The notes under the pieces are model-generated. The model was given only the letters and a program-made list of their open reading frames with translations. It did no database searches and had not been told where the DNA came from. Made by a program: the position numbers and the translations under genes. DNA of 64,000 nucleotides from Naegleria gruberi (taxonomy: Eukaryota): NCBI GenBank assembly GCA_000004985.1, contig GG738888.1. One strand, 5' to 3'. Shown here piece by piece: positions 1-58,666 of the stretch. How positions within the stretch are numbered: position 1 is the stretch's first letter; each line of letters begins with the position of its first letter.

Positions 1-325
1 GACCATTGCCAATTTTCATGAATTTTATCTCCCATAAATGTAATATTTCTTTGATTAATTAGCACCACATTTAATATCATTTTATTTCAATTGTAAAGGT
101 TTTGAAATATTAACTCTGTGACCATTTTACAAGAAAATAATCATCTTTCGAAATTATTTGACCATAAATATCATGTGACATGGTATAGCAAATGTTCCAA
201 ATATACAATATTCTCTAAAATATTTAGCTCTACTAATTTCATCATTAAATTGAATAGTTGTAATTTTTTCATGATATAAAATTAAAAATATAGCAATAGG
301 AGCAGGTACTATATATAGACCTAAT

Positions 326-393
326 AAAACTGAATAATAGTATAATTAATAAAATATATATATAAAACTGAATAATAGTATAATTAATAAAAT
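326..393. repeat. Tandem direct duplication of about 37 bp (AAACTGAATAATAGTATAATTAATAAAATA x2) overlapping the 3' end of ORF 346..702.
   Basis: Read directly. Two near-identical copies are separated by ATATATAT. Confidence 0.5.
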
Positions 394-702
394 AATAACA
401 GCATAAACAACACCATTTCCACAATCACCCATATAACAATTACCACAATTAGATGAACCACCACCAGTTCCACAACAATCAATACAACAATTACATTTAT
501 CACATAAATTATTACATGATGAACAACAATTATCACTTTTTCTAATACGTTTAGATGAATGTATTGATGGTGGTCTTATAATTCTATTATCAATTCTATT
601 AGAAATATTATTATTATTATTATTTAATTGATTGGATTGTTTATCAAATATAGTAATATGTTCAATTTGATTTACAATTGAACACCATCTAAAAAAACCC
701 AT
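346..702 (-). CDS. Hypothetical Cys-rich protein with C-terminal hydrophobic tail. Gene structure is unresolved and an N/Q-rich open frame continues upstream to about 1000.
   Basis: ORF track. C-terminal CCSSCNNLCDKCNCCIDCCGTGGG motif followed by a hydrophobic tail. A second open frame (YPPSSYLQPIDGQPIITQQ...) overlaps the 5' end in another phase. Confidence 0.3.
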   Translation of the reverse strand: MGFFRWCSIVNQIEHITIFDKQSNQLNNNNNNISNRIDNRIIRPPSIHSSKRIRKSDNCCSSCNNLCDKCNCCIDCCGTGGGSSNCGNCYMGDCGNGVVYAVIILLIILLFSFIYIFY

Positions 703-1065
703 TGAAGCACAACATAAATATTTATCAATAGTATCTTGATTTTGTAATGTATATTCATAGTGTGTTGATGATTTTTGTTTAAATCTTGAAATTTTTTACT
801 AATTATTTCAGTTTTAATCATTGGAGTAGCATTAGTAATATTGAAATGTTGATTAGTTTGATTATTAGTTTGAAATAATTGTTGTTGAATTGGATAAGAT
901 GATTGTTGTGTTATTATTGGTTGACCATCAATAGGTTGTAGATATGAAGATGGTGGATAGCTTCATTTGTATTAGAATTATTAATACAATTTATTAATTT
1001 AATATATTTAATTAAAAATTACTAAAATTAGACAATTATATTTTAAAGTACTTTTTTGAAAAAAA

Positions 1066-2645
1066 ATGAAAGGTTTGCTCTCTACATTAAATCGTTCTGT
1101 TCTTCATTCCGTCAAAGGTTTTAAGAATGTACCAATCAGAGGTTCTTCATCATTGAAACATTTATTTACTACTCCGTCATCATCATTACATGTCTCATCA
1201 TCATTAAATTTATTTATGATGAATAATAACCTAAAGCCTTGTAATTATACAACAAGTCTTATTGTTAATAATAATAATAATAATAATGAATCATCAACAA
1301 GTAAACCTTTAAATCAATTAGAACAATCCATGTTACAAGGAATTACTTCTATTATTCAAGCTAATAATGAATCTTTTTCATCAGGTGATTATATTACTAT
1401 TCAAAAAAGATATGAACAGTATGTTATTTTAATTATTTTAATTATTAATATATTTAATATTATTATTATTCATCATCATAACAATATATAATAATAACAA
1501 CATAACATCATCAAAATAATAATTCATAACAATCAACATCATTATAACATCATCATCATAAAAACATCAGAATATATAATCAATTAACAAAATCTAATCA
1601 TCCAATTCAATCAGAATTAATTAAAGAGAATGTATTAAAATTAATTTCAATTAGTATTGAACATTTAAAATTGATTGAAAAAAAAGAAGAATTAATATTA
1701 CCATTTTATAAATTAGAATGGAAGATTGCATGTGTATTACAAATAATTGGAGAATATGAACAAGCAGTTATTAAAATTACTAGTGCATTAAATTCAAAAG
1801 AAGGAATTGAAGAAATTCCACAAATGAAAATTATAAAAGCATCAATTTTAAATAGTATGGGATTAAATGATCAAGGATTTGAATTACATAATAAAGCTAT
1901 ACAAGAAATTGGACCTAAAGTAACATGGAAGAATGGATTAGAAGCATCTTTAGCATTTCATGAATTGGGTGAATATTATTTAAATAGAGGTGAAACTGGA
2001 AAGGCTGTTCAAAATTTTGAAAAATCACTTTCAATTAGTGAAGGTTTTTATGGATGGATGTCACCACAAACAACTAAAACTGCATTATTATTAAGTAGAT
2101 TATATTTAGAAACTAATAAGGTTGATTTTTCTGTTATTTTAGGTGAAAAAGCTTTAATTGGTATTGAATTATTTTTAGATTTATATGAAGCACAATTAAT
2201 TACAATTTCAGGTTCATATTTAGCAAGAGCATATGAAAGAAAAGGTTTTTATCCATTTCAACAATCAACCATTTCAAGAGTTTATAATATTTTAAGAAGA
2301 AAAAAGAATGAAACTGATACACAAACATATATGGAATGTGTTTTTAAATTAGAAAATATGATGGGTTCATGTAGATTCTTTCAAGGTCATTTAAAATTAG
2401 CTGATCAAACATTTACTAAATTAGATCAATTAGCTGAATCTGTAATGCCTGAATGGATTAAAAAAGATTCAGAAGAAGCTCAATTTGAATTAGCCTATAT
2501 GAAATATTTTAAAGGTATTTCTAAAATTGGATTAAAAGAAAATTCACAAGGTATTTCTGAACTTGAACAAGCAAGAAAAATATTTTTAAATTTACAAAGA
2601 CAAGATTGGGCATTACATTGTGATCAATATATTAATAAAAATTAA
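1066..2645 (+). CDS. TPR-like repeat protein in 2 exons (1066..1418, 1571..2645). The intron is 1419..1570 (GTATGT...CATCAG). The N-terminus resembles a mitochondrial presequence.
   Basis: ORFs 1066..1491 and 1671..2645 join in frame across a GTATGT 5' splice site. Exon 1 leaves CA and exon 2 supplies A, giving CAA. The track's start at 1671 is TTG, not ATG. TPR-like helical repeats in exon 2. Confidence 0.55.
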
Positions 2646-3165
2646 TACATTTTTTATTATTAATTATTCTTTGTCTTTATTGAAAGAATTGGCATTTTGT
2701 TACACAGCTCCCAAAACAGAACTTTATTCTTTTTTAGAGTTAATACAATTTTTCTATCATTTCTAAAATGTTTTGTAAATTTTATGTTTATTGGATATTT
2801 AATATTATTTGATAATGAATAATACCTTTAAATATTTCAAACTCTATTCCATTTAAACTATTGATACTAATGACATCATAAAATTTAATACGAAATACTT
2901 TTTGTCTTTCTTTTTACATTTCTTTCATTCTTAATAGTAGTATATTAAGATTTCGTTTCATTTTTTAAACTCAACATATTGTGAATACAGTGTTATAATA
3001 ATCATGTACTTGTTCTTTATACTAATTTATTTCAATATTTGTTTTGATTGGAGAAACACCAATACCTAGTTTTCAATAAATTAACTCTAAATCTTCCTAT
3101 TTAATATTCTATACTACTGCTACTAATAGTATTTTGATGGTAGAATGTTATGTAAATATATTAGG

Positions 3166-5271
3166 TTATAACCTATTCTCATAGGGTACACTAATAAGCA
3201 TTGTATCTTCTTCAATTCCTGATTTGAATAATTTTGAGAAGAAACCTCTCTTTTGATTATTACCACTGCCATTACCACTACTACCAATACCAATACCACC
3301 TATAGCACCATTACTATTCATCATCATTATGGAAGTTTGTTGTTGTTGATAGGGATAATCCATACTATTGGCTCTACTTCTACTACTACTATAATTACTT
3401 TGATTACTATTGGCTCTCTCTCTTTGAATTGCATTACTATTAGAACGACTATTTCTATTATTATTATTATTATTATTATGTGAATAAGGAGAGGAGGTAA
3501 TAATATATTGTTGATCATTCAATAGACCACCACCACCACTATGTAATGGTGGAGACATGATTAATGAACTTGCTTCACTCTGTTCATCCAAATCAGATTC
3601 TATACCACCTCCAATACCACCATCAATACCACCACCAATAATACACCAACACCAATATTTCCATTATGATAATTATGATAATAATAATTATTGTGTGTAC
3701 TCAAAGTTGAATCAGTGTAATGTGTTAAATCATTTTCATCTCTAACAATATCACGTATAATTTGATTAGATTTATGAAATATATAACACATTAAAAATGG
3801 TGTAAAATCTGATAGAGAATTAATAAATCCAATTACAATAATATAAGAATCATATAAAATTAAAAGTCCATTTCCATATAATGAAATATAAATTTCAGTA
3901 AATATTAATTGTGAAATTGATTGTAATAAATAAACCATTATACAAATAATCATTGAATAAAATAACCATTTGCTAGTTGATTCAATTCTATTCATTAATT
4001 TTGGACCATTTCTATAATTATATGAAGATTGTGATGATAAATTATATTCAATATTATTTTCATTCTCTTTATATCTACTATTATTATTATTATTGAATGT
4101 TGTTATTTGTTGTTGTTGTTGTTGTTGTTGTTGTGGTGGTACTGTTGTTGTTACTGCTGCTAATTGTGTGGTGGTGGTGGTGGTATTTTGTGTTATTATT
4201 TGTGTTATTATTTGTGTTGGTCTTCCATTAGTAGTGAATGAATTTCTTTTATAAATTTTTAAACCTTCAACAAATGATAAATTCCACATTGATTTTCTTT
4301 TCCAAATTGAGTAAAATAAAAACCAAATAATTAATGAAAATGATAAAAATGCATTTAAACAATGTTCAACTCTAACAATCCATGTAAACCATATTGTATT
4401 CATATTTGGTGAATATAAATCTGGATAACATTTAATAAATACTAAAATTGACATTGTAATTTCTAATCCAATCCATAAAATACTACACGTAATAAATATT
4501 AATAAATGTTTAAATTGTCTTTTTTGTATATTTGCACTTGCATATCCTCTTTGAAATGATTCTAATTCACTCCAAAAAAATGCCTTTTTTTTTAATATTA
4601 TTTAATATTTAATATTATATTGTAATAATATTTAATATTTTTGTAATAATAATAAAACTTACAATTAAAAAATAAGTATTATGTAATAAAATACCACTCA
4701 ATGTAAATGCAACTAGAAATATTTGAGAATGAGACCAATTATTTCCAATATCAAGAATATTTGTTGGTAATAATTCAAAACCAACAAGAAAATAAATTAA
4801 AAATCTAATTAAAAAATATGGAATTATTTGAATATAAAATAAATATTGTAATATTTGACTAGGTTGTGAATTTGGATATAAATTCTTTTCTCCATTTCTA
4901 AAATCTTTTAATCTTTTAAATTTTTTAATCCATTTTGAAATTTTATTAACAAGTAAATAAATTGAATAACAAAAAACTAGTGAAAATCCAAAAAAGTAAA
5001 ATACAAAAAAACAAATAAATGTTGGATGTAGATAATTATTAGAAGGTGGTTGATCATTTGTTGTTGTATTATTATTAATATATCCGAATATTTGTTCTTG
5101 TACAAGTGATGATAATGATGATAATGATGATGGTGAAGATGATGGTGATGTATTAATAATATCCGCAGCATGATTCCTAGTATCAGTCCAATCATGATGA
5201 TATGATGATGTAATGATTTTAGATAAAAGTGTACTACTCATTGTTGAATAGTGTTGAGAGGTGTCGATCAT
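3166..5271 (-). CDS. Multi-pass membrane protein. Exons are 5271..4663 and 4583..3602, separated by a 79-nt intron at 4584..4662. The low-complexity ORF 3166..3591 may be a C-terminal extension reached through a weak GTGTTG intron or a frameshift.
   Basis: GTAAGT 5' splice site (RC of acttac at 4657-4662) and a poly-A...AG acceptor join ORF 4615..5271 to ORF 3600..4454 in frame as ...FLI|AFFWSE.... Several hydrophobic helices. The N-terminus is poly-S. Confidence 0.5.
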
Positions 5272-5495
5272 TTTTTGAAAAGTTATTATTGTTGTGCTGA
5301 TGATGATTGTTTTATGATGCGCTCATTTAGATATTTTCCATTATATATATTTCTTTGGTTGGGTTTCTATTTGGGTTTATGCTTTTCCATACAGACTAGT
5401 AGTATTATCATTTCAAAAACATAATGTTGTGTAATAGCTAGCTCCTCAAATATTTTCTCACTCAGTTGATGTGTTTATATGATGAATAGTTTTAT

Positions 5496-6455
5496 TTAAA
5501 AATCAGTTTCAATAAATAGAATGTCAAACATAGACCCTGACATATCAAGGTTCCATTCAGTAATATCAGAAAGAGGAGAATCCAGTTGAGAGTTTGAAGA
5601 TATTGTTGATGATTGATCTGATAACCGTGAATTTAATTCAGGTTTTGGATCAATTCTGTTGTAATTATCAATAATAAACTCGTTACTATTCAATGGTGCC
5701 ATGGTATCTGATTGATACAGTGAACCATGTATCACCACTGAATTAAAATTAATTGGTGATGATTCATTCAAATTGTAAGTGGAAATATCTTGTTGTTGAG
5801 CAGCAGCAGGTCTATTATTGAAACTAGTAATAGAGGATTCATTGGATATTGTTGGAGAGAAAGAGTTATTGGTTGGAGTGGAGGTAGAGGCAATGGTAGT
5901 GATAGCAGTGATGGCAGGGGAGGCAATGGTAGTGGTAGTGGCAGCAGTGGAGGTAGAGGCAGTGATAGTAGTAGTAGTTGGAGTAGTAGTATTAGAATTG
6001 GATGAATTGAAATTAACTACATTATTTAAAGAGGTAGGTGTAGAGCAAGAATTAGATCTCAAAGGAGTGGAAGGAGCATGAGGAACAATGTACAACACTT
6101 GTTTGTTTAAAGACAAGTCTAAAATTTGTAAACAATCAATGTGCGGACGAGAATGTCTTCGTTGTTTTTGTGATCCATTTGAAGGACATGAAGCACTTGA
6201 AGAAAGTGCTTTAGGTCTTCTTCGTTTTGTCACTCCATTGAAGAATTGTACTCTTCTATGGTTTGAATTCATGAATGATGATGATTTACTTGTTAGCTGG
6301 TTTCTAGAACAATTATTCATTAAACTTCTACAAGTATAACAATCATTATTCATATTTGTTGGTTGTTGTTGCACATAAAAATTGTATTTACCTGTTGTGA
6401 ATCTGCAAAAGGTTTTTTCAAAGGGATTAGCGTGGCTTTTAGGGGCTATTTTCAT
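5496..6455 (-). CDS. S/T-rich low-complexity protein with an N-terminal Cys/His cluster (CRF..C..C). Function unknown.
   Basis: 319-aa ORF with eukaryotic codon bias. The antisense ORFs 5790..6005 and 5818..6081 are reading artefacts of the repetitive ACT/AGT-rich tract. Confidence 0.35.
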   Translation of the reverse strand: MKIAPKSHANPFEKTFCRFTTGKYNFYVQQQPTNMNNDCYTCRSLMNNCSRNQLTSKSSSFMNSNHRRVQFFNGVTKRRRPKALSSSASCPSNGSQKQRRHSRPHIDCLQILDLSLNKQVLYIVPHAPSTPLRSNSCSTPTSLNNVVNFNSSNSNTTTPTTTTITASTSTAATTTTIASPAITAITTIASTSTPTNNSFSPTISNESSITSFNNRPAAAQQQDISTYNLNESSPINFNSVVIHGSLYQSDTMAPLNSNEFIIDNYNRIDPKPELNSRLSDQSSTISSNSQLDSPLSDITEWNLDMSGSMFDILFIETDF

Positions 6456-6810
6456 TTGAGATATTTTTTTTTGAAGTTGTTTTTAGAAAGCCTAGTCGCT
6501 TGAATACGCTTTAAAAATGGCCACTAACACCATTTAATAATAATAAGGATACTGAATATTTTGAGAGTTTTACCAATTGTTATTGATAAATGATTTGGTG
6601 GAGTGTTGATTGTTTAGTAGTACAACATGTGTAAAAAGACAGGTCATTGAGTACGAATAATATCAAAATCTAATACTACTACTACAAGGTTACCAAGTAT
6701 TGTAAAGTAATGATTTAAAAAGTGAAGGAATTCAACCAACCAGTAGGAATACAAGGCTTGTTGGTTGAAGAAAGAGCGCAAAACAACACTACAAAAGAAT
6801 CTTCAGCAAC

Positions 6811-6824
6811 ATCTCGGCCGAGAT
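6811..6824. repeat. Perfect 14-bp GC-rich palindrome ATCTCGGCCGAGAT in the intergenic/promoter region.
   Basis: Read directly. The sequence equals its own reverse complement. It is GC-rich in an AT-rich background. Confidence 0.5.
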
Positions 6825-6855
6825 GATGACAACTTCAAGTGGCTAGCAGTAGTCG

Positions 6856-6899
6856 TTGGCGCCAAATGGTTTTACAACAACGATTACAATTTTGGCGCC
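6856..6899. promoter_or_regulatory. Pair of E2F-like GGCGCC-core elements: TTGGCGCCAAA at 6856-6866 and TTTTGGCGCC at 6889-6899. Together they form a 10-bp inverted repeat with a 22-nt spacer.
   Basis: Read directly. They match the E2F consensus TTTSGCGC. They lie about 400 bp upstream of the ATG at 6455. Confidence 0.3.
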
Positions 6900-7128
6900 T
6901 AATAGATAGTAATGTTGTGGATTATAATGAAATTATCTCTTTGAAATTGTATAATGGCTCAATGCTTTTTTTGAATTTCAATTCCAGAATGGTTTTATCT
7001 ACAAATGAACTCTAAATTGAATTTGGAACAGACTTTACAAAACACTCTACAATTTTCAAGATCCATTTCATAAACAGAGATGAAACCAAAAACTTCTAAA
7101 AGATTTATTTGGAAATTACTTGAAGTTT

Positions 7129-8265
7129 TTAAAAATTATTTTCAATAACTCTTGTAATATTTTCAATCTTATCTCCAACCTTGCTTTCAGTTTGTTCCAA
7201 ATCTTTTACAAAATTTTTCTTTGGTTGATAAGTTGATTTAGTTTTTGTAAAGGAATACTTTAAATTATCAAATTTAGATAATTTCAAATCTAAGAAATCG
7301 TATGGTTTCAATTTTTCAAAATCATTGAACATTTGATCACATGATAATTTCCAATCTAATAATTCTTTCAAATAATCCATTCTAAATTGAGATTGTTTAT
7401 CAAGTGAATATAAAACTTCACTTTCCTTCTTTTCAAGTAATTCTTTAATTTTCAAGAATTGACTTTGAATTTTTTGTTTAGTTTCTGTAGTTGAAATTTC
7501 AGTATTACCCAACTCATTTTCAAGTTGATTAACTGAAATTTTCTCTTCATTAATCCATTTATCAATATCAGATTTAAATTCAAATATTTCTTCTCTTTCA
7601 ATTCCTTCAACATCTTCAATTAAATGAATTTTATGAGTATTGTGAAGTTTACTAACAGCACAAGCAGAACACATTAATTTCTTACAAGTTTTACAAAGTG
7701 AATTAATGGAAATATTATGAGTTGGACATTTATGAATTGCACTTTGTCTATTGTAATTATAATTTAAATAAATTATAATTAAATATATAATAATTAAATA
7801 ATAATAATTAAATAAATATTAATAATAAATATAATTAAATAATAATAATAAATAAAAAACATACGATTCAGCACCACTAATTCTAACAATTCTAATAGCA
7901 ATTTCAATTTCATTCTTTTTAGGAGTATTTAAAGATAAAGTTCTCTTAACTTCTTCATTTAAATGAAATTGATTAGTATCAATTTGTAAAGAAACATTTC
8001 CAATAAATTCATCTTTGGTAATTTTGTTTTCATCCATAACAGTGAATAAAAGTGTTACATTTGGAATATTCTTCAATACCATTCCAGAGACTGGAATTAC
8101 AAATTCATTATTCCACTCTGGATTTGATGATTTTGAAATAACAAATGATTTCTTCTTTATATTGGCATCTAAATTAGTTTCAACTAGACAGTAGGCATCT
8201 TGTTTTGATGATAAATTAGCTCCAATTGTACGAACAATAATTAAATCTCCATCTAATAAACTCAT
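7129..8265 (-). CDS. C2 domain + B-box zinc finger + coiled-coil protein in 2 exons (8265..7865 and 7747..7129). The intron is 7748..7864.
   Basis: Exon 1 has a C2-like motif (NPEWNNEFVIPV). The GTATGT 5' site (RC of acatac 7859-7864) and CAATAG acceptor join in frame (..GAES|QSAIHKCPTHN...). A B-box-like C/H pattern (CPTH...CKTCKKLMCSACAVSKLHNTHKIH) is followed by a coiled coil. Confidence 0.55.
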
Positions 8266-8278
8266 GATGACTGTACTA

Positions 8279-8305
8279 CAATAATAATAATAATAATAAT
8301 AATAT
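8279..8305. repeat. (ATA)n microsatellite in the 5' flank of the C2/B-box gene.
   Basis: Read directly: aataataataataataataataat. Confidence 0.6.
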
Positions 8306-8526
8306 TCACAAGATAATGATCCTGGATAAAGTTAACTTTTTTTTTTAAATTTGTTCTCCTCCATTACAATCAAATGTGGTGAATTTATAATTGTTCACCA
8401 TGTCATGTTGACAGGAGCGACCCAAAAAAACAAAATAATAATTGATTGGTTGACCATTTAAATAATAGAGGGTCATTTGATGTGAAATGGAATGTTCTTT
8501 AAAAACAAATGTTATTTCTTTTTTTA

Positions 8527-9523
8527 TTAATTATTAGTATTAATATAAAGAGAAACAAAGAATGTAGTTAAATTTATACTAGTTGCCATACAAACAATAC
8601 CAAGTATTACAATTAATGGAATTGGTAAAAGGAATAATTCTGAATTTTTGATAAAAGTTAATTTGAGATAACCTTTAAATGTAATGTACCAATAATATGA
8701 AAATGAAAAAATGTAAAGTAAATCTGAAAGTATTATTCCCATAAATCCATCCATGCTTAATAAAGGTAAAAATATAAATTGAGCAACATAGAGTAAAATA
8801 AATAATGGAAAGAATGAATTTGTATGAATATCAAAACTATATAACCATTCAATACTTTCATTATCACTTGTTGATAGAATTTTGTTTCCAATTAACCTAA
8901 AAATCAAATATTACATTAAAATATATTTAATCCATCATTATGATCCGAATTATAAAATTCATATTAAAATGTTCATATGTATATTTTGTAATATATTCAT
9001 ATGTTTTATAATATTAATAATAAATAATTGATAAATAATTGATAATATGATAACATACCAAGTAAATGTAGAAATTACAATTCCAAGAAATATAAAATCA
9101 AAAAGTAATAAATATCCAATCAGTGAAATATAATTCGATAATGAAAGCTTATGGAAAAAGATTGAATAAATTAATCCGACAATTAACATGAAGGCTGATA
9201 ATATCATTACAAGGGAAGGATCATCTCTTGAGTATCTATCTTTAATATCTAAATGATCAGCATTTAATAATTAATATTATTAATCAGAAATCTTAACAAG
9301 ACATACATTTTCTATTCTCAGCACTTTTATATACAAGATCAGGGGATATTATTAATTGTAACATTTGTCTGAAGGCTCCTTTAAAATCCAATTGTCTCCA
9401 TTTAAACATTCTCACTATAAATTGAATAATTTGTTCTTGATCACCACCTGATTTACTAATTGATGATGATGATCCTGTTGCTGATGTTGATGAGAGTGAG
9501 GGAGATGGTCGTTGTTGCATCAT
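8527..9523 (-). CDS. unc50: UNC-50 family (GMH1-like) Golgi membrane protein in 3 exons: 9523..9307, 9248..9059 and 8896..8527. Introns are 9249..9306 and 8897..9058.
   Basis: Family signature FKWRQLDFKGAFRQMLQLIISPDLVYK...YSRDDPSLVMILSAF and 5 TM helices. Both introns begin GTATGT and all junctions are in frame with ORFs 9293..9523, 8959..9207 and 8527..8907. The product is about 258 aa, matching the family's size. Confidence 0.7.
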
Positions 9524-9837
9524 TTTTATTACTTTTATTAGAGTAATTAATAATAATATCTACATCCCAACGAATAACAATGATGACATCATATCATACG
9601 TGGAAATGTAATATTATACTATTTGATTGTTTCTACTTTCAATGGTATACTAAATTTTCGAATTGGCCAATATTCAAACAAGCCTTCTTCCTCTATTCAA
9701 TGATAGCACACTAGTAGTAGGCTTTAAGAAAAAGTTAGGCTTCCTTCACAAAAAAGCCTTCTCAAAAGATAAAATGCACATTCTTGTTGATGTTGTTTGA
9801 AAAAAGCCTTCTTCTGAATTTTCTCGGAACTAAAAAA

Positions 9838-12800
9838 ATGGATAAAACAAAATCACAACAGCAGCAACAACAATATGTAAACCATCAACATGTTGAGGAG
9901 GATGATGAAAAATCGACGAGTTATGATTTGGTTGCGGAAACAAAGAAATGGTGTGATGAATTTGATATTAAACAAATAGGAACATTATTTGAAAATAAGA
10001 AGGCTACTATTGATGTTTCATCAATGCAAAATACTCAAATACTTGATGAATTATATGAACATTTTAATGAGAGATTACTTTCTAATCAAACATTAAACGC
10101 CATGCAATATAGTGTGCACGGATTGGTTCAATCATGTTTAAAAACAGTCAAAAAACCAATATTTACAGTATTACTTAAATTAGTGAATATTTTAACATCT
10201 AAACATAAGAAAGTTTTGGATTCAATGTTATCTTCTAATTCTACTAGTTTGAAGAATGTAAATTTCCTTAGATTTTTATTCATCTTTGAAAAGATTCTTG
10301 TTGATATATATTCAAATTCAAATTCATTGAATGATGAATCAATTCAATTAATTCAACAAATATCAACAAATTTCATTGCTACTCATCAAAATTTAGAATC
10401 TAATCAATCAAATGATTTGAAAAATATCATATTTTCAGCACTTTCTATGAATGAACTATTTTCATCACTATTTTCTTCAGGTGTTGATCAAAGTACTTTA
10501 ATTTCAATGATTGATTCATTAAATAATATTGCTAATCATTTATTAACAAAGAAAGATTTAGTGAATTGGGCTAATTTAGTTTATATGAATATTACTTCAA
10601 GAGTTTTGGAAATTTCTTCACGTTCCTTATTACAATCTTCTATGAAAGTTATTTTTACTTGTAAAATTGCTTTTAAATTAATTACTTTAAAATTTAAATT
10701 TTTAAATATTATTGATAAAATTAATTCTACTACTACATCTATTAATAATATTAATAATAATAATACTATTAATAATAATACTATTAAATCTAATACTACT
10801 ATTAATAATAATACTACTACTACAAGTCTAAATGATAACTCAATTATTGAAAAGTTAAAAGAACAAGTACAAATTATCAATCAATTAATATTTGAATTTC
10901 TCAAAAATACTAATGGAGGTATTTCAGATTATTTAGATAATCCAGATGTACAATGTTATGGATTAATTAATGCTAGAAATGTTTCATTTAAAGCAGGATT
11001 TTTAAATGAATGTGTTGGAAGTAATACATTCTATTTCTTTAAAGAATTTGTTTCTATTTTAAGACAAGAACCAAAAAGTTTATTCAATTCTATTGAAAAT
11101 ATTTACAAATCATTTGAACATGAAATTAATACTTTCCAACATTTAACAGAATCTGTTTCATTATATATTAAAATTAAACAATCATTCATATTTAGTTTAA
11201 TGTGGTTAACATATTTAGAATATCAAAAGGAAAATATTAATAGAAGTGATTTTTTAAATTTAATAATTTCATATTTTAAAATTATTCAAAAATTTGATAT
11301 TTACAAAATGGCATCAGAAAATTCAGTTTCTTACAAATTTTTATTTGAATTTGTAAATAGAATTTTTAGAAATATTTTAATATTTGAAATTGATAATTCT
11401 CCAAAAGAAGAAATTTATTCCATAATTGAATGTTTAAAGTTAATAGTAACAACAGATTATCGTATTCTTGATGGTTTTTATAGTTATATTTGGAAGATTG
11501 TTTTCCAAATTGATTCAAATGATGTTGAAAAATTAAATTTGAGTCAATTCATTGGTGAAATGTTAGACATTTTTGTACATTTTGCTAAAGGAAAGAGTGC
11601 TTTTGATGACATGTTTAATGCTATTGATATGTTATCTTTATCATTATCATCCACTAAGTATACTAGTACTACTAGTACTACTAGTACTACTACTGCTAAT
11701 ACTGGTGGTAAACAATTTAAAAAGAATAGTAACAATACATCCATTAATAATAATAATACTAATAATAATAACATGATTCTGAATAATTCAATAATTCAAT
11801 TAGAATCATTCAGAAATAGTATTAAGAATTTGATTCAAAATATTGCACCAACAGATATTATAATTTATTTTAAATATTTAATTGATACAATTTCACAACG
11901 TTTAAATAATAACAATAATAATCATAATAATAATCATAATAATAATAATAACAAGTTGAAAAGTATGATAACACTTTTATTATTTCCATTGACTTCATTT
12001 GGATTTTTTGTTCAATTAAATGAATCAAATTATGAAGAAATGCAAAAACTTGCAAAACAAACATGTTCAGAAATTGTTAAAAAGTTAATGAATGAAATGT
12101 CAAATGAATCAAGTGTAATTCAACTCTATTATTCAATGAGTAATATTATTCATAGATCTGAAGAATTTTCATCAGATGTATTTTCAATGAAAGAAATTGT
12201 TAATGATAAAGATTTTATTGTTAATTTTCATGATGGTACTGGTTTAACAATGGATGAATTTACTAATAATCAATCATTTATACAAGTATTTAAAGAATTA
12301 TCATTTATGAATAAGGGTATTTACTGTTATATAATTTTTAGAAGATTAATGATAATTAATCAACAAGTTAATATTAGAAGACACAATTTAACAACTTCAA
12401 ATCAAAATTTATATTCATATGAAACTCATGAAAGTAGAAGAGAACAAAAATTATTAACAAGAAATTTTCAAACTTATTTTAATTTTATTCAAGAAGAATT
12501 ATCAATTTTATCTAACATTCATCAATTTGAAGAATTTACACTTGAAGAAATTGAAGAATTTGATTGGGGAGGTATTATTGAATCTATTAATAGTGAAAAA
12601 AAGTACATTTCAATGTTATGGTATTTAACTGCTACTAATTTTATTTATATTATTCCATATTGTGATGAAGAAGAATTATTAAAATTATGTAATTTTATTC
12701 TAACACAATCTATTAATGGTATGAGATTGAATAGATCAATGTTATTACCATTCTCACTTGAAAGAGTTACATTAGATTTATGGAATGATGATTTATTATT

Positions 12801-13569
12801 TGAACAAGAAAAAATTCAATCTTCATTTGAATCTTTCTTATTTAATTCAATTTTAAATTCTATTCAATTAATATCAAATGATATGTTTTCAAATGAAAAG
12901 AAATGGATTGAAAAAATTGAAAAATTTACATCAAGTATTTCATCTTGTAAAATTGAAAAGAAAGTTTCATCCATTTTTGAATATATTGAATCTAAAGTAT
13001 TTAAAGTAAAGGATAATAAGGAAATTGATGAAAATTTATGTTCAATTTTTAAATCAGATTTTAAATTAACAAATATTAATCCTCAACAAGGAAATTTATA
13101 TTTAAATCCATATATTAATTTAATTTTATCATTCCCACCAAAATACTTTTCACACTCATTTACATTATCAGTTTTATCATTATTAATGATTTATGATGCT
13201 TTTATTTGTTTAGATATTTTCAATAATAATAATACCAATACTACTACTCAATATAATAGTGATACAAGTAATTATCCATTATTTGGATCGAATAGAGTTA
13301 AATTTATTGAATCTTGTAGAAAAGTTCAATTATTATTATTACGTAATTTACCAGAAGAAAATATTAGAAATTTATCTCAATCTTTTATTTATAGATTTTA
13401 TATTCGTACAGTTTATTCTTTAAATTCTAAATTTACTCTTAAAAATATGAATGAAATTGTAAAGAATATTGAAAATTATACATGTGATATCATGTCCATT
13501 CTTTTCAATATGGGATTAGATAAGGAAATGAGTGAAGATAAAGAATGTTTAATCATTTCATTATTATTA

Positions 13570-13617
<48 letters not shown>

Positions 13618-15261
13618 ACAAATAATACTACAACAATAGATAATGTAGCACAAGTAAGATTTTCCAATTGTTTATTAGGAAGTATTTATTCATTTATTAA
13701 GAAATCTATTATTGAAGAGGAAGGATCTTCTATTCAAAATAGAAATTTCCAAATTGAATCCAATATTTATTCATTATTATTTACAAATGGAATGTATGGA
13801 AAGAAAAAGAATTTTTATTTTGCATTTACTGATAGAGTTAAATCCATTAAGAATGATCCTCATGTTTATCAAAGTCTTGTAATTTCATCACAAATTTTAC
13901 TTTTAATTTCAACAAGTAAATCTAAATTACCATCATCTATTGATCATAATACTATTAATGAATTATATAATGTAATGTGTGAAAAGGAAGTAACATTTAA
14001 TGTTTTGAAAGATTTAATTGAATTAGTAACAATGTTTGGTCCAAATTCTCTAGATGAAGTAAATCCACTTCCTATTCCTCCAAGTAAATTATTTAGAAAA
14101 GTTGTTAAATCAATTCAAGATGTTAAAGAAGAAAAATTATTAACTTTAATGGTTACAACATTGAGTGGTTCACATAAGATTTTCCTAATTAATATGATTA
14201 TTGATCAATTGAAAGAATTTAATCAACATCTTGCAATGCCAAATATTTCTGTACAAAATGCTTCAATTCATGTTGATCAAGTTCAAGAAAATGTAAAGAA
14301 ATTAATAGATATCATTTCAACTGTTCACATGTGCTTGATTTCAATTGACAAGTCAGAATTGAACTTTTATTTATGTTCTGTTATTGAAGCTATCAAATTG
14401 AGTACTAGATCTTATCTTTTTAACACAATTCCAATTTCAAATATTTCTTCAATTAGTTCTGATTATTGGAAGATTAATTCTTCAGTTCAAACTTTAATTA
14501 TGAGATTGTTAAAGTTTATTAATTATATTTCATTAGAAATCAAATCACCACATGTTTATACAACCAAAACAACAATGGATTTATTCCTTTCTTTAATTTC
14601 AGATATTGCTGTTTCTACAAGTATATTCACATATTCTTCAATGGATGTAGCCAGTAGAGGAAAGAATATTATCATGTTATCTAAATTATCAGCTGAAGAA
14701 TTGTTAACCATGAGATTGGATCCAAATATTATTATAACACTTTCTGAAATTTTGGGATATATTGTTCAACATTCAATTTTAAAGGTTACAAAGGTTTCTA
14801 TTGTTCAATCAACTCTTAATTCCTTAATTAATATGCTTTTTGAGAGGGTAATCATTTTTGAGTCAATTCTCGAAACAAAGGAAGTTGATAATATGAATAC
14901 TTGTGTGAGATGTACTGAATCAATCGGATCAGTTTATAATACTGTTGCAAAGATTTCTAGTTGGGATGAATTTAAGGCACATATTGTATTTGAATTTATT
15001 TCAACTTATGCTGCTGTTAGTGATATGGTAAGAATGGATGATAATACAATGGATGAAAGACTTTACATTTCCAAATTACTTGGTACTAATAAGAAGAAGA
15101 TTCTTGATACCTTTGTCAAGAGTGGAATTCATACCCTTATTCATATTCCAATTGTTAATTCAAAGATTACAAGTTGGATGCAAGATTCTACAAGCTATCA
15201 ATCCTTACAAAATCTCTTCTCACAAATTTTACAATATAACAGTAATGATCTCGGATTCTAA
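9838..15261 (+). CDS. Very large (about 1807 aa), mostly helical low-complexity protein of unknown function, encoded without introns.
   Basis: Single 5.4-kb ORF. The ATG at 9838 has an A-rich context, whereas the track start at 9784 is probably 5' leader. It contains poly-N/T tracts, for example (AAT)n at about 13569-13615. Confidence 0.5.
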
Positions 15262-44947: not shown

Positions 44948-47839
44948 ATGTCTGACAACGAATCCGACTATGAAGAAGAAAATTACGACGAGGAAGAGGA
45001 GGAAGAAGAAGAAGATAACTATGAACCTGCTCAAAAAAAATCTAAATCATCAAAAAGCATGTTTATTGATGACGCTGCTCAGGAAGATGATGAAGACGAA
45101 GAAGAAGAGGGTGAAGAAGACTTTCACCAACAATATAGAAAGACATCGGTTTCCGATCTTCCACAACCATCTGCACAAAGAAAAAACATTATGGCTGATA
45201 TCGAAAGAAGATATGCAGGTGCTGATGACGAGGATGAGGATGATGAAGTATATAACGATACTGTAAGAATTGCTCAAAAACAACAACCAAATCTTCCAAC
45301 ACCTGAGGATCCAAAATTATTTTTAGTTAAATGTAAACAAGGAAAGGAAAAGGAAGCTGTCATGACATTATTACAAAAACACTTCAGTGTGAAACATTCA
45401 CCAAACAAAAAAGATCGTCTTCTAATTACATCAGCTTTGTTTATTGAAGGTTTCAAAGGAAAGATCTATATTGAAGCTCAAAAAGAAGTTCACGTAAGAC
45501 ATGCTATTGAAGGACTTAGTCATTTGATTTATGAAAGTGGAATTAAACTTGTACCATTGAAGGAAATGCCTGATGTCTTGAATGTGAACCAACTCTCAAC
45601 AAAAATTCAAGATATTTCTGTTGGAAAATGGGTGAGAGTTAAAAGAGGTACATACAAAGGAGATATCGGAAAAGTCCATGATGTGGATAAAGCTAGAGGA
45701 TATTGTGTAGTTGTACTTGTACCAAGAATTGATTATACTGGACAAAGTTCTGGTAAACGTCCACCACAAAGACTCTTTAATAAGGAACTTCTTCCACAAA
45801 CTGAACAAGAAAAAGTTGAAGATGCAAAGGATCAAATTACTTATAGTGTTTATCAAGGAAACAAATTCCATGACGGTTACGTATATAAGCACATTCACTT
45901 AAAGTCTTTGGAAACAAAGGATATCATACCAACTAATAGTGAACTTCAAATTTATTATCAAAATGAAAGTCCAAGTACTGCTATTTCGTTATCAAGAAAA
46001 ACATATTTCAAGAGAGGTGATAATGTACGTGTTATCAAGGGTGAATTGAGAGGAATGGTTGGTCAAATTACAAATATTGATGAAGAATCTCAAGTAATTA
46101 CAATGCTTCCAAAGAGTAATGATATTAACACACCACTTCAATTTACAAGCAATCAACTTCAAAAACACTTTTCTGTAGGTCAATTCTGTAGAGTTGTAGG
46201 TACTGGTAAATGGGAAGGAGAATCTGGTTACATTGTCAGAGTTAGTGAAGATGATGATAGTATTGTCTTGTATAACGAAGTAAGAAGATGTGACATGAAT
46301 GTGTACTCGAATGAAATCCAAGAAACAACTACTGTTGCCTCAGAGAACAAACTTGGTAACTATTCATTATTCGACATGGTTCGTCTTGATTCACAAACTA
46401 TGGGTGTTATTGTAAAATTTGATTCTAATAAGAACACATCTGATGCTCAAGTTCAAGTTGTAGATAATAATGATGTACTAAGACAAGTTAAATTACAAGA
46501 ACTAGGAAGAAAGCAAAATACTAAAGCTGGATACAAAGCTCCTGATAAGAGTAAGCATCTCGTTGGTATTAGTGATACAGTTAAAGTCATTGATCCAACA
46601 TCTGTACATTTTGGAAGAGAAGGCGTTGTTAAGCAAGTTTTTAGAAAATTCCTTTTCTGTTGTTCTATTGATTTAATTCAAAATGCTGGTATTTTTGCAG
46701 TCCCAGCATCTCATTGTGAATTGAGAGGAGCAAGAAACAGACAAATACTGAACTCTCAAACATCTGGTGCTGCTGGTAATACTACAAATAAGAGAGGGTT
46801 CGTATTTACAAAGAGAAGAAGAAACCATCCATTCACAAACAAGACAGCTATTATCACTAAAGGTCCATACAAAGGATACTTGGGTATTGTTAAGGATGCC
46901 ACTGATACCACTGCTCGTATTGAACTTCACTCTCAGAATAAGATTATTAACGTTGATATTTCTTGGATTTCTTTGCAAGACGAAAAGGAAAAGAGAAAGG
47001 ATACTTATCAAACAGTTTCTACACCTTATCACAATTCTGGGGCTGCTACACCATTCATGCCACCTTCAACTCCTTGGGACAATAGAGATTCATCCAAAAC
47101 TCCAATCCATACATCCCTTGGTCATGAAACTCCAATCCATCGTCCAGAAACACCATCCCGTAGTGGTGATGCTTGGAATCCTCGTAAACCAAATACTCCA
47201 ATGCACGATTGGCAAGAAACAACAACTCCAGGAGGTGTACCATCCACTCCACATGATAATTATACAGTCAATACTCCAGGTATTGGCATGAATCCAATCA
47301 CTCCAGCTTACACTCCTGGTGTAGGTGCTCCAATCACTCCTGGAATTACCACTCCAAATACTCCACATGGAGACAACTCATACTCATACCACCCAATTAC
47401 ACCTGGTATTCAAACTCCAAATCCAGTTACACCTCACGAATCTTACAATTCAATTTCAACTCCAGGAGGTGTATTCCAAACTCCAAATCCTGACATGTAT
47501 GGTTATGGTTCAGTTGTTACACCTGGAATGGGACATTCAGTTTCCACACCTTATGGTACACCTGGTATGATGCATCACCCAACTACTCCAGGAATGATGC
47601 ACCATCCAACTACTCCTGGCTTTATTGGTTATCCTGGTATGCACCCAATGACACCTGGTCTTATGAATCCAACTACTCCAGGTATGCATCCAATGACTCC
47701 AGGTATGATGAATCCTACAACACCTGGAATGCATCCAATGACCCCTGGAATGATGCACCCATCCACTCCAGGTATGCATCCAATGACACCAGGTTCAAAT
47801 CCAATTACTCCAGGAAATCATTATGACGATGACGAGTAA
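44948..47839 (+). CDS. spt5: Transcription elongation factor SPT5 (DSIF large subunit).
   Basis: Acidic N-terminus, NGN region, multiple KOW motifs ([48 protein letters not shown]) and a C-terminal TPG-rich repeat region (CTR). The ATG at 44948 is preferred over the track start at 44855. Confidence 0.8.
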
Positions 47840-57135: not shown

Positions 57136-57798
57136 TTAGCAGTGGTTCTTAATTTGGTCAATAATTTCTTGCTTCAATTCAGCAATGTATGGAAGATTTC
57201 TATATAATTCACCAAAGTCCAAACCGTATCCAACAACGAATTTTTCACCAATATCAAATCCAATAAAATCAGCATTGAAATTTTCAATCTTTCTCTTCTT
57301 CTTAGGGGCAGTCAACAAGACACAAGTCTTAATGGACTTGACACTTCTGGTTTGGAATAAACTGCTCAAGAAACTCAATGTATAACCAGTATCAATAATA
57401 TCTTCAATAATCAAAACATGTTTTCTGCACATTGATTTTCTAGTGTCCATGATAATCTTAACTTCACCACTTGAAGTAATACTGTCTTGATATGAGCTCA
57501 ATGCAATGAAATCAGTTGTAACTGGAACACCTATTTAATTACAATAATACAATTTGAATGATTGAAATAATTAATAAGATTGCACTGACAAATCACTAAA
57601 CTTACCAATATGTCTACTCAAATCAGCAGCAAAAATGTATGAACCCTTCAAAACTGGAACCAAGATCAATGATTCACCTTCTTCCAAAATACTCTTGTAG
57701 TGTTCTGTGATTTGGTGAGCCAATTCCTTGACACGTTGTTGGAGTTGTTCTTCAGTGTACAAGATATTGTCACAAACGTTTGGTAATGGAAGAGTCAT
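57136..57798 (-). CDS. hprt: Hypoxanthine-guanine phosphoribosyltransferase in 2 exons: 57798..57606 and 57530..57136. The intron is 75 nt.
   Basis: PRPP-binding motif VLIIEDIIDTGYTL and VGYGLDFGELYRNLPYIAEL. A GTAAGT...AAATAG intron joins ORFs 57571..57879 and 57136..57501 in frame (G + GT). Confidence 0.8.
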
Positions 57799-58133
57799 TT
57801 CGGAATTAATGTTGTTGTGTTGTTTTTTTAAATTGTATGGATTCAGTATAATCACCCTCTTTCTTCTAGGACAACACAAGACGAGGTACGTACCTCATCA
57901 CAATTACCTTCATCTCTCCCTAATAATTGTAAGGCACTTTATCAGAGGTCTGTACTCGGTCTTTTTATGCCAAATGGTAACTATTACTATTTAACAACCT
58001 AAAAATGATTATTGGTTGTTTATGATTCTTCCAGTGTGTTCGGTATTATAGCTTTGAAGAAATTAGAGGATAATAGAAATTTTCATTGATGTTGCATAAA
58101 TCATAAACTAATGATTATATTTTATTGTTCTAT

Positions 58134-58557
58134 TTAGTTGAGAGCAGACTTGATGGCCAAGATGGAAACAGTCAAGAGGGAGAAAGCAAAGAGACCAGTG
58201 TAGTTCTTTGGTTCAGCTGGCTTGGCAGCTTCAGAAGCCAAAACCTTTTCTCTGATGATAGTCATGGAAACCTTTCCTTCGCTAATCTTCAAAGTCAATG
58301 GCTTGAATGGAGTACCTTGCTTGGCGTGAGCACCATCACAATACTAGCAATTATTAAATACATTGTTAAAAAGATGACGACATTATTCCATCATCATGGA
58401 ATAAAAAATTACTTACTGGCTTGGTGGCAGACAAACCACAAGTACACAAATACTATCATAGAAAAAATTGATGAAAATGATTAAAAACTTCCGTGATGGT
58501 AGTATGACATACCTTGGTTTCTTCGAATTCAGCAACAGGGACGACGTATTCAGACAT
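58134..58557 (-). CDS. CDGSH iron-sulfur domain (mitoNEET/CISD-like) protein of about 96 aa in 3 exons: 58557..58513, 58452..58417 (a 36-nt micro-exon) and 58343..58134. It has a C-terminal hydrophobic tail.
   Basis: Only the spliced product gives a complete C-x-C-x2-S-x3-P-x-CDGAH motif. The CTC half is on the micro-exon and the CDGAH half on exon 3. Introns carry GTATGT/GTAAGT and TGATAG/TGCTAG sites. The C-terminus is LFAFSLLTVSILAIKSALN. Confidence 0.55.
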
Positions 58558-58666
58558 TTTATTTTAAATTTTACAAACAATTTAAGGGAATGTTCAAGAG
58601 AGATTCTGGAGTTATTGGTGCAAAACGCCCGAAAAAAAATTGATCCAAAGAGAGTTTGTTATTTAA

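Follow-up and report, generated by a model that had tools for sequence, protein, structure and literature searches.

A three-exon CDGSH iron-sulfur gene of Naegleria gruberi with a 36-nt micro-exon and a predicted C-terminal membrane anchor

We analysed a stretch of 64,000 nucleotides (nt) of Naegleria gruberi contig GG738888.1 (assembly GCA_000004985.1), called the window below, and detected a genuine three-exon protein-coding gene on its minus strand, at 58557-58134. The gene has two GT..AG introns and its spliced product is a 96-amino-acid (aa) protein, MSEYVVPVAEFEETKYLCTCGLSATKPYCDGAHAKQGTPFKPLTLKISEGKVSMTIIREKVLASEAAKPAEPKNYTGLFAFSLLTVSILAIKSALN, with a single CDGSH motif near the N-terminus and a single hydrophobic helix at the C-terminus. 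Analysis of the genomic sequence, of the orthologues and of the protein family established the splicing model, the membership of the CDGSH iron-sulfur domain (CISD) family, the purifying selection and the conservation of the C-terminal hydrophobic helix. A membrane anchor at the C-terminus is well supported by the sequence comparisons. The outer mitochondrial membrane, with the cluster-binding domain in the cytosol, is the location that we favour, at a confidence that at best balances evenly for and against.

Gene model and conservation of the micro-exon

The features of the gene, in the order of transcription, are the following.

58513..58557, minus strand: exon 1, 45 nt, ATG and 14 codons, MSEYVVPVAEFEETK, encoding the N-terminal strand of the CDGSH domain
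58453..58512, minus strand: intron 1, 60 nt, phase 0, GTATGT...TGATAG, 28% GC versus 44% in the exons
58417..58452, minus strand: micro-exon, 36 nt, YLCTCGLSATKP, bearing Cys18, Cys20, Ser23 and Pro27
58417-58446, minus strand: first half of the motif, CTCGLSATKP, translation verified
58344..58416, minus strand: intron 2, 73 nt, phase 0, GTAAGT...TGCTAG, cutting the CDGSH motif between Pro27 and Tyr28
58134..58343, minus strand: exon 3, 210 nt, 69 codons and the TAA stop codon (58136-58134)
58326..58343, minus strand: second half of the motif, YCDGAH, translation verified
58152..58202, minus strand: sequence encoding the predicted transmembrane anchor at the C-terminus (residues 75-91, YTGLFAFSLLTVSILAI); the five residues KSALN form the tail after it
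58121..58126, minus strand: AATAAA, 8 nt 3' of the stop codon, a candidate polyadenylation signal by its sequence

An in-frame TAA lies 9 nt 5' of the ATG, and exon 1 aligns with the N-termini of the orthologues of N. fowleri, N. lovaniensis and Willaertia. Exon 3 encodes YCDGAH with Cys29 and His33, the beta-hairpin, a charged helical linker and the C-terminal hydrophobic helix, and the protein ends in ...YTGLFAFSLLTVSILAIKSALN. After splicing, the full motif reads C18-T-C20-G-L-S23-A-T-K-P27-Y-C29-D-G-A-H33 and fits the consensus C-X-C-X2-(S/T)-X3-P-X-C-D-G-(S/A/T)-H with its three Cys and one His. When the entire 64 kb are translated in all six frames, the half-motifs CxCxx[ST]xxxP and xC[DN]G[STA]H occur once each, both on the minus strand, and the gap between them is exactly the 73-nt GT..AG intron; the unspliced full CDGSH motif has zero occurrences in the same translation. 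This arrangement of motif halves and intron spacing is far beyond chance.

Retention of either intron introduces in-frame stops. Skipping of the micro-exon keeps the frame and gives an 84-aa product without Cys18 and Cys20, that is, without two of the three Cys ligands. The spliced protein matches Pfam zf-CDGSH (PF09360) with 36.0 bits (E 8.4e-9; gathering cutoff 29.5) and the exon-skipped version has no zf-CDGSH match; the complete motif requires the micro-exon. The original prediction, made from the letters of the DNA, had claimed that the complete motif exists only with this 36-nt exon. Re-reading, splicing and translating the minus strand reproduced all of its exon coordinates and sequences, the profile match was indeed obtained only with the micro-exon included, and the zf-CDGSH search that it had named as a check on itself returned a match rather than none.

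Exhaustive HMMER search detected the N. fowleri orthologue XP_044562173.1 (FDP41_003452, 104 aa; 62% identity over the full length), with N. lovaniensis XP_044550212.1 as its cluster mate, and profile search detected Willaertia magna ABK040_001123 (47-51% identity; 47% at 97% coverage in the profile search). The full-length orthologues of all three heterolobosean species are already deposited as uncharacterised hypothetical proteins and the gene is new for N. gruberi only; no paper was found in the literature on the N. fowleri locus tag FDP41_003452. The order ubiquitin-like gene, CDGSH gene, phosphoribosyltransferase, PDEase_II and PQ-loop is common to the window, N. fowleri and N. lovaniensis, with a DUF7899 gene additionally called between the ubiquitin-like and CDGSH genes in N. 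lovaniensis. In Willaertia the sole shared neighbour is the DUF7899 gene, placed head-to-head.

For the comparison of intron positions, annotated proteins were mapped back onto their own genomic DNA. The middle exon of N. fowleri and of N. lovaniensis is 36 nt long, lies at the same position and has phase-0 introns on both sides. Intron 1 measures 60 nt in N. gruberi, 96 nt in N. fowleri and 78 nt in N. lovaniensis; intron 2 measures 73, 78 and 56 nt in the same species and 58 nt in Willaertia magna. The Willaertia intron between ...KP and YCDG... has the same position and phase as in Naegleria, and the motif-splitting intron therefore predates the Naegleria-Willaertia split, being common to both. 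The upstream intron of Willaertia lies elsewhere (phase 1, after nt 28), which makes its middle exon 65 nt long, and by these gene structures the 36-nt micro-exon is a Naegleria feature. Four distant members (at loci L004, L005, L075 and L076) have the motif without the intron. The original prediction had proposed a comparison with orthologues in related amoebozoa; the comparison recovered the exon with unchanged length, position and phase in the two other Naegleria species, and the assumed host affinity was wrong, N. gruberi being a member of Heterolobosea in Discoba.

The micro-exon is 78% identical between N. gruberi and N. fowleri, and exon 3 is 63-66% identical to the exons of N. fowleri and N. 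lovaniensis. Identity to the introns of these species is 30-44% (30-41% for intron 1), with changed lengths, and the GC content is 25-28% in introns versus 44-45% in exons. The ratio of non-synonymous to synonymous substitution (dN/dS, Nei-Gojobori method) is 0.09-0.24 in all species pairs. Over the 12 codons of the micro-exon, N. gruberi and N. fowleri are separated by 6.5 synonymous and 1.5 non-synonymous differences, with proportions of differing synonymous (pS) and non-synonymous (pN) sites of 0.78 and 0.05. This pattern marks a translated exon and is the strongest support obtained here short of RNA data. These comparisons indicate that the exons are under purifying selection and that the introns are not conserved.

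Two neighbouring single-exon open reading frames (ORFs) are identical to N. gruberi XP_002673803.1 and XP_002673739.1. Neither the 96-aa nor the exon-skipped 84-aa product was found in a 15-billion-protein collection that holds these N. gruberi neighbours, and a profile search with the N. gruberi sequence in the query alignment gave no N. gruberi protein among the best matches. A PHI-BLAST census of CDGSH proteins from 2011 has one N. gruberi entry only, XP_002676522.1 (PMC3174974), which belongs to type 6, is soluble and has two motifs and an N-terminal presequence. Judged from the collection, the profile search and the census, the gene is apparently missing from the public N. gruberi protein set, and the suggestion of the original prediction that gene predictors would easily miss it is borne out for N. 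gruberi as far as tested. The window protein, with one motif and a C-terminal anchor, is a second and distinct CISD of N. gruberi beside XP_002676522.1. As a point of search method, the word-indexed search with the single 96-aa query returned zero matches despite the presence in the collection of the 62%-identical orthologue (P0004), which the exhaustive and profile searches recovered; word-indexed negatives for very short proteins are unreliable.

Protein family, C-terminal segment and CISD type

The family alignment comprises eight sequences, namely the window product, N. fowleri, Willaertia and five further environmental or eukaryotic sequences. Each family member has one CDGSH motif near the N-terminus, the orthologues and family members score 32.8-38.6 bits against zf-CDGSH, and the invariant positions are C, C, G, S, P, C-D-G and H together with a Pro nine residues after the His. 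A metagenome scan with the protein gave 69 loci; the 11 with the longest matches were translated and were all tandem-motif or actinobacterial-type CISDs, matching through the 'ATKPYCDG' pattern, with no new family members and no spliced transcripts among them.

Two further observations were made on single members. The automatic gene call at L004 (P0128/P0155) begins within an intron and misses an upstream exon. That exon has its ATG at 5688 (MSLVDVNNNKIEDPNDPKGFYSAPVDSFK...), and joining the GT near 5777 to the AG at 6025 (segments 5688-5777 and 6026-6300) restores the family N-terminal strand, with an intron position that differs from those of Naegleria and Willaertia. The uS5 protein of L004 hints weakly at its affinity, the best plausible named match being Acrasis kona (70%), with fungi at 66-68%. 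A prokaryotic origin of the P0167 subgroup, considered for the 4-nt gene overlap in L075, was judged unlikely: of the neighbours, one weakly matches a CCCH zinc finger and another is a cyclophilin, NCBIfam gives zero matches, and AATAAA follows the stop.

In the window protein, residues 75-91 of 96 form a 17-aa uncharged stretch with a grand average of hydropathy (GRAVY) of 1.94. It is the sole hydrophobic segment and has net positive flanks, and AlphaFold2 places a helix (76-95) over it with a predicted local distance difference test (pLDDT) score of about 80. All eight full-length members have such an uncharged stretch of 14-19 aa, with GRAVY of 1.8-2.7, and only 0-6 residues remain between its end and the C-terminus; the flank before it is net positive in all members and the flank after it in all but one. 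The character and position of the segment are constant despite 24-61% identity between the proteins, and its sequence identity is low outside Naegleria. Neither a second hydrophobic stretch nor an N-terminal extension able to be a signal peptide or presequence was found in the full-length members. By the operational definition, a tail-anchored protein has its one transmembrane domain (TMD) no more than about 30 residues from the C-terminus and lacks both a signal peptide and any further TMD; this is the composition found here.

The family profile was searched against all solved structures. The best match was the type 6 protein MmCISD (3tbn, 2.7e-13), followed by human CISD3/MiNT (6avj, 6e-10), both aligned to the first motif, the Tetrahymena mitoribosomal CDGSH protein (6z1p_AV, 1e-8), type 3 (3tbo, 4e-8), type 4 (3tbm, 2.5e-7) and the Tetrahymena Complex IV subunit COXFS (7w5z_FS, 9e-7); mitoNEET and NAF-1 matched at about 1e-6 and weaker. 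The first-motif signature of type 6, CxCGxS (CxCGxS...PFCDGxH), is conserved in the family. In the AlphaFold2 monomer model built on the family alignment (mean pLDDT 75.6), a strand runs up to the motif and a short helix sits at the His, followed by a beta-hairpin at 43-56, a charged helix at 57-67 and the C-terminal helix. About 52 residues of the model can be overlaid on type 1 subunits at about 2 Å. The predicted fold of the window protein is that of the CISD cluster-binding module. On these profile and model comparisons the module is a genuine CISD; its sequence leans to type 6 and its fold does not resolve the subtype.

No published CISD type definition fully covers the window protein, because it combines a single motif and occurrence in eukaryotes with a hydrophobic helix at the C-terminus. 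Type 6 requires two tandem motifs about 20 residues apart, and the window protein has a single motif with no Cys after residue 29. Type 1 carries Arg at motif position 3, Trp at 5 and an aromatic residue at 10 in its interface (PMC3174974), where the window protein has Thr19, Gly21 and Lys26. The type 1 anchor is likewise missing: there is no MitoNEET_N Pfam match, the motif starts at residue 18, and the N-terminus is polar, the maximum Kyte-Doolittle value of any 15-residue segment outside the tail being 0.83.

Known CDGSH proteins resemble the Naegleria family in different parts. As in mitoNEET/CISD1 and NAF-1/CISD2, there is one CDGSH motif and one transmembrane helix per chain, and the domain would face the cytosol, as type 1 domains do, if the protein is tail-anchored. 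Unlike in type 1, where an N-terminal signal anchor (MitoNEET_N) precedes a C-terminal domain, the order is reversed; the NEET tetrapeptide is absent and the similarity is weaker than to type 6. The prokaryotic single-motif CISDs of type 3 (3tbo) and type 4 (3tbm) share the single motif and are obligate homodimers, but they are soluble and have no transmembrane segment. CISD3/MiNT and the bacterial type 6 proteins (Magnetospirillum MmCISD, 3tbn) differ in being soluble, with two tandem motifs and, in eukaryotes, a presequence.

The closest architectural precedents are subunits of Complex IV. The CISD3 homologue TgApiCox13 of Toxoplasma has two CDGSH motifs, lacks a presequence and carries at its C-terminus a TMD that is necessary and sufficient for mitochondrial localisation; it is an integral cytochrome c oxidase subunit, and Tetrahymena COXFS is held at the matrix side of Complex IV by its C-terminal helix (PMC10263302). 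C-terminal TMDs were also predicted in dinoflagellate, Dictyostelium and chytrid homologues (PMC10263302). The Naegleria protein is like TgApiCox13, COXFS (7w5z chain FS) and Perkinsus Cox13 (9fq7 chain 4T) in having the CDGSH domain first and a single C-terminal transmembrane helix last, in its size (about 100-120 aa in these CISD3-type subunits), in the CxCGxS first motif and, as regards the apicomplexan form, in the lack of a presequence. It differs in that ApiCox13 and COXFS carry two motifs and bind two clusters as monomers, whereas the Naegleria family has a single motif with no vestige of another. ApiCox13 and COXFS are established as associated with Complex IV and as oriented towards the matrix. 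Profile-profile comparison of the single-motif family with the tandem-motif TMD-bearing proteins gave a probability of 98.9%, with an alignment that covers motif 1 and the following strand only, and descent from a tandem-motif form by loss of the second motif is possible on this homology. The two-motif proteins P0028, P0116 and P0088 have a C-terminal hydrophobic tail like that of the single-motif family, and P0088, which closely matches Dictyostelium discoideum DDB_G0267712 (Lin et al. File S5), appears to be a dictyostelid homologue. These tails agree with a suggestion in the literature that, outside animals, many CISD3 homologues carry C-terminal TMDs.

The layout claimed by the original prediction, an N-terminal CDGSH domain and a single C-terminal hydrophobic segment, was recovered across this small family, and the order is reversed relative to mitoNEET as it had stated; mitoNEET is not the closest relative by sequence, as the first halves of type 6/CISD3 proteins match better. 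The architecture was also called uncommon; no description of the single-motif form was found in the literature searched, phylogenetic surveys included, and the two-motif form has precedents in TgApiCox13 and COXFS. The tail-anchored CISD that it had predicted agrees with the operational sequence marks. A cytosol-facing topology does not follow: COXFS, likewise with the CDGSH domain first and the anchor last, has its domain on the matrix side, and a C-terminal TMD alone therefore does not predict a cytosol-facing tail anchor.

Membrane placement and competing explanations

The mechanism that we favour begins with one [2Fe-2S] cluster per chain, probably bound by Cys18, Cys20, Cys29 and His33. 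Two one-motif chains would pair to form the canonical CISD fold with its two clusters, and the resulting dimer would have two anchors, as do mitoNEET and NAF-1, which are single-motif homodimers with one transmembrane helix per protomer (PMC10263302). The homodimer is suggested by the presence of only one motif per chain. To our knowledge, all solved single-motif CISDs pair into the two-cluster fold. The short C-terminal helix would insert post-translationally into a mitochondrial membrane, most likely the outer one, and leave the cluster domain in the cytosol, where the protein may serve as a labile-cluster or redox relay and thus as a functional analogue of mitoNEET anchored at the opposite chain end. 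Taken as a whole, with homodimer, outer-membrane tail anchor, cytosolic domain and mitoNEET-like relay, this explanation seems to us evenly poised between right and wrong.

The outer membrane is favoured for four reasons. A two-anchor homodimer is the build of mitoNEET and NAF-1; a homodimer fits poorly with a single-helix, two-cluster Complex IV subunit; the segment matches the classical outer-membrane tail-anchor signature; and the CISDs on record for N. gruberi include a matrix CISD3 homologue and lack a type 1 protein, none being reported for Naegleria in the literature. A short, moderately hydrophobic, basic-flanked segment with a very short tail is the profile of mitochondrial outer-membrane tail anchors, although it may not hold in Heterolobosea. 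For mitochondrial targeting by such a C-terminal segment, TgApiCox13 is an experimental precedent.

Several points weigh against this explanation. ApiCox13 and COXFS, the most thoroughly studied of the CDGSH proteins that end in a TMD, are in the inner membrane, and the domain of COXFS faces the matrix (PMC10263302). In its TMD features the single-motif family cannot be told apart from the tandem-motif TMD-bearing CISDs, and by sequence its domain is closer to type 6/CISD3 than to mitoNEET. As to the gene itself, the exact 96-aa product is absent from the protein collection, which includes assemblies of public sequencing runs, with no assembled spliced transcript recorded, and an N. gruberi gene model fragment without the motif may exist at the locus.

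An inner-membrane protein similar to ApiCox13 and COXFS, that is, a CISD3-type protein with a degenerated second motif, anchored in or next to cytochrome c oxidase and facing the matrix, would agree with the location of these precedents, and we consider it unlikely for the window protein. Residues 34-96 contain no Cys and no trace of a second motif, and the homology detected by hhalign to tandem-motif TMD-bearing CISDs ends after the strand following motif 1. A one-motif chain would need either a homodimer with two transmembrane helices or a half-domain, neither of which matches the single-helix, two-cluster COXFS; moreover, ApiCox13-type Complex IV subunits are documented only in alveolates, and a matrix CISD3 homologue with a presequence is already present in N. 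gruberi. A tail anchor in the endoplasmic reticulum or another endomembrane, as in NAF-1/CISD2, is distinctly improbable in view of a stretch that is short (14-19 aa) and of moderate hydropathy (GRAVY 1.8-2.7), with mostly basic flanks and a very short tail, a profile that by the usual sorting rules speaks for the mitochondrial outer membrane rather than the endoplasmic reticulum, if these rules apply in Heterolobosea.

The C-terminal segment might also be no anchor at all and instead belong to a soluble protein as a helix for oligomerisation or partner binding. The summed insertion energy on the Hessa scale is near zero, so that insertion is borderline, and TgApiCox13 is partly carbonate-extractable. 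Set against these points are the uniformly apolar segment, which keeps its character and position while the sequence drifts, the mostly basic flanks, and the modelled 20-residue helix that a charged linker separates from the domain, and we give a soluble protein little credence. Chance motif fragments or a decaying pseudogene would account for the lack of an N. gruberi protein model or assembled transcript of the product on record. This reading is effectively refuted by the comparative data, namely a Pfam score over the gathering cutoff, intact, annotated and syntenic orthologues in three other species, the low dN/dS (0.09-0.24) and intron positions that are kept while intron sequences have diverged.

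A bolder extension of the outer-membrane explanation is that Heterolobosea independently evolved a tethered NEET protein by adding a tail anchor to a single CDGSH module derived from CISD3/type 6, which would give a homodimeric outer-membrane relay convergent with mitoNEET in reverse chain order; we regard it as doubtful but arguable. The same extension makes a splicing switch possible, in which skipping of the micro-exon would replace the cluster-binding isoform by a cluster-less anchored one. Such a switch is conceivable because loss of the 36-nt exon keeps the frame and takes away two of the three Cys ligands.

Neighbouring features and meaning of the finding

The CDGSH gene is divergently arranged with a DUF7899-family gene in the window.

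58558..58666: intergenic region, 109 bp between the CDGSH ATG and the DUF7899-family ATG (58667, plus strand), head-to-head

The divergent DUF7899/CDGSH pair is also present in N. lovaniensis and Willaertia magna (DUF7899 at L002 4211-5805 and L003 4398-5543), and it may be served by a bidirectional promoter. The matching 1.9-kb gap of the N. fowleri locus L001 (4077-6000) contains no called gene, and the DUF7899 gene may be unannotated there. A 119-aa plus-strand ORF antisense to the CDGSH gene has no Pfam match and was set aside as a mechanical ORF, and Rfam and tRNA scans of the window gave no matches.

Just downstream, an HPRT-like phosphoribosyltransferase gene (57145-57797, minus strand) appears to have one intron of about 70 nt in N. 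gruberi, as judged from the ORFs 57571-57879 and 57136-57501 and from a tblastn span of 648 nt for 191 aligned residues. Its N. fowleri and N. lovaniensis orthologues have no intron (194 aa from 585 nt), which would be a difference in intron presence and absence within the genus. Elsewhere in the window, 47632-47814 contains a 45-nt tandem repeat of 4.1 copies with 75% matches, also scored with a 21-nt period, the consensus of which, if coding, would give a Pro/Gly/Met-rich peptide repeat. Positions 1-14000 have a GC content of 0.21-0.27 versus 0.29-0.38 in the remainder and contain AT-rich short tandem repeats at 1471-1549, 4603-4651, 7770-7852, 10720-10819 and 13570-13627.

With this gene, a free-living model amoeba gains an iron-sulfur protein that its gene set had lacked, and the case demonstrates that a 36-nt exon can hide a member of a domain family from annotation and from motif-based censuses. 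The architecture of one motif with a C-terminal anchor is covered neither by the seven published CISD types nor by the class I-III scheme. It is intermediate between mitoNEET, with one motif and an N-terminal anchor, and ApiCox13/COXFS, with two motifs and a C-terminal anchor. It is a new combination of known elements and a third solution to membrane tethering, less surprising given ApiCox13, and provides a test case for the evolution of NEET membrane tethering and for iron-sulfur accessory subunits of Complex IV beyond alveolates. In other systems NEET proteins are known to bind drugs, and they have links to iron handling; the location and role of the uncharacterised FDP41_003452 in the pathogen N. 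fowleri may have practical interest.

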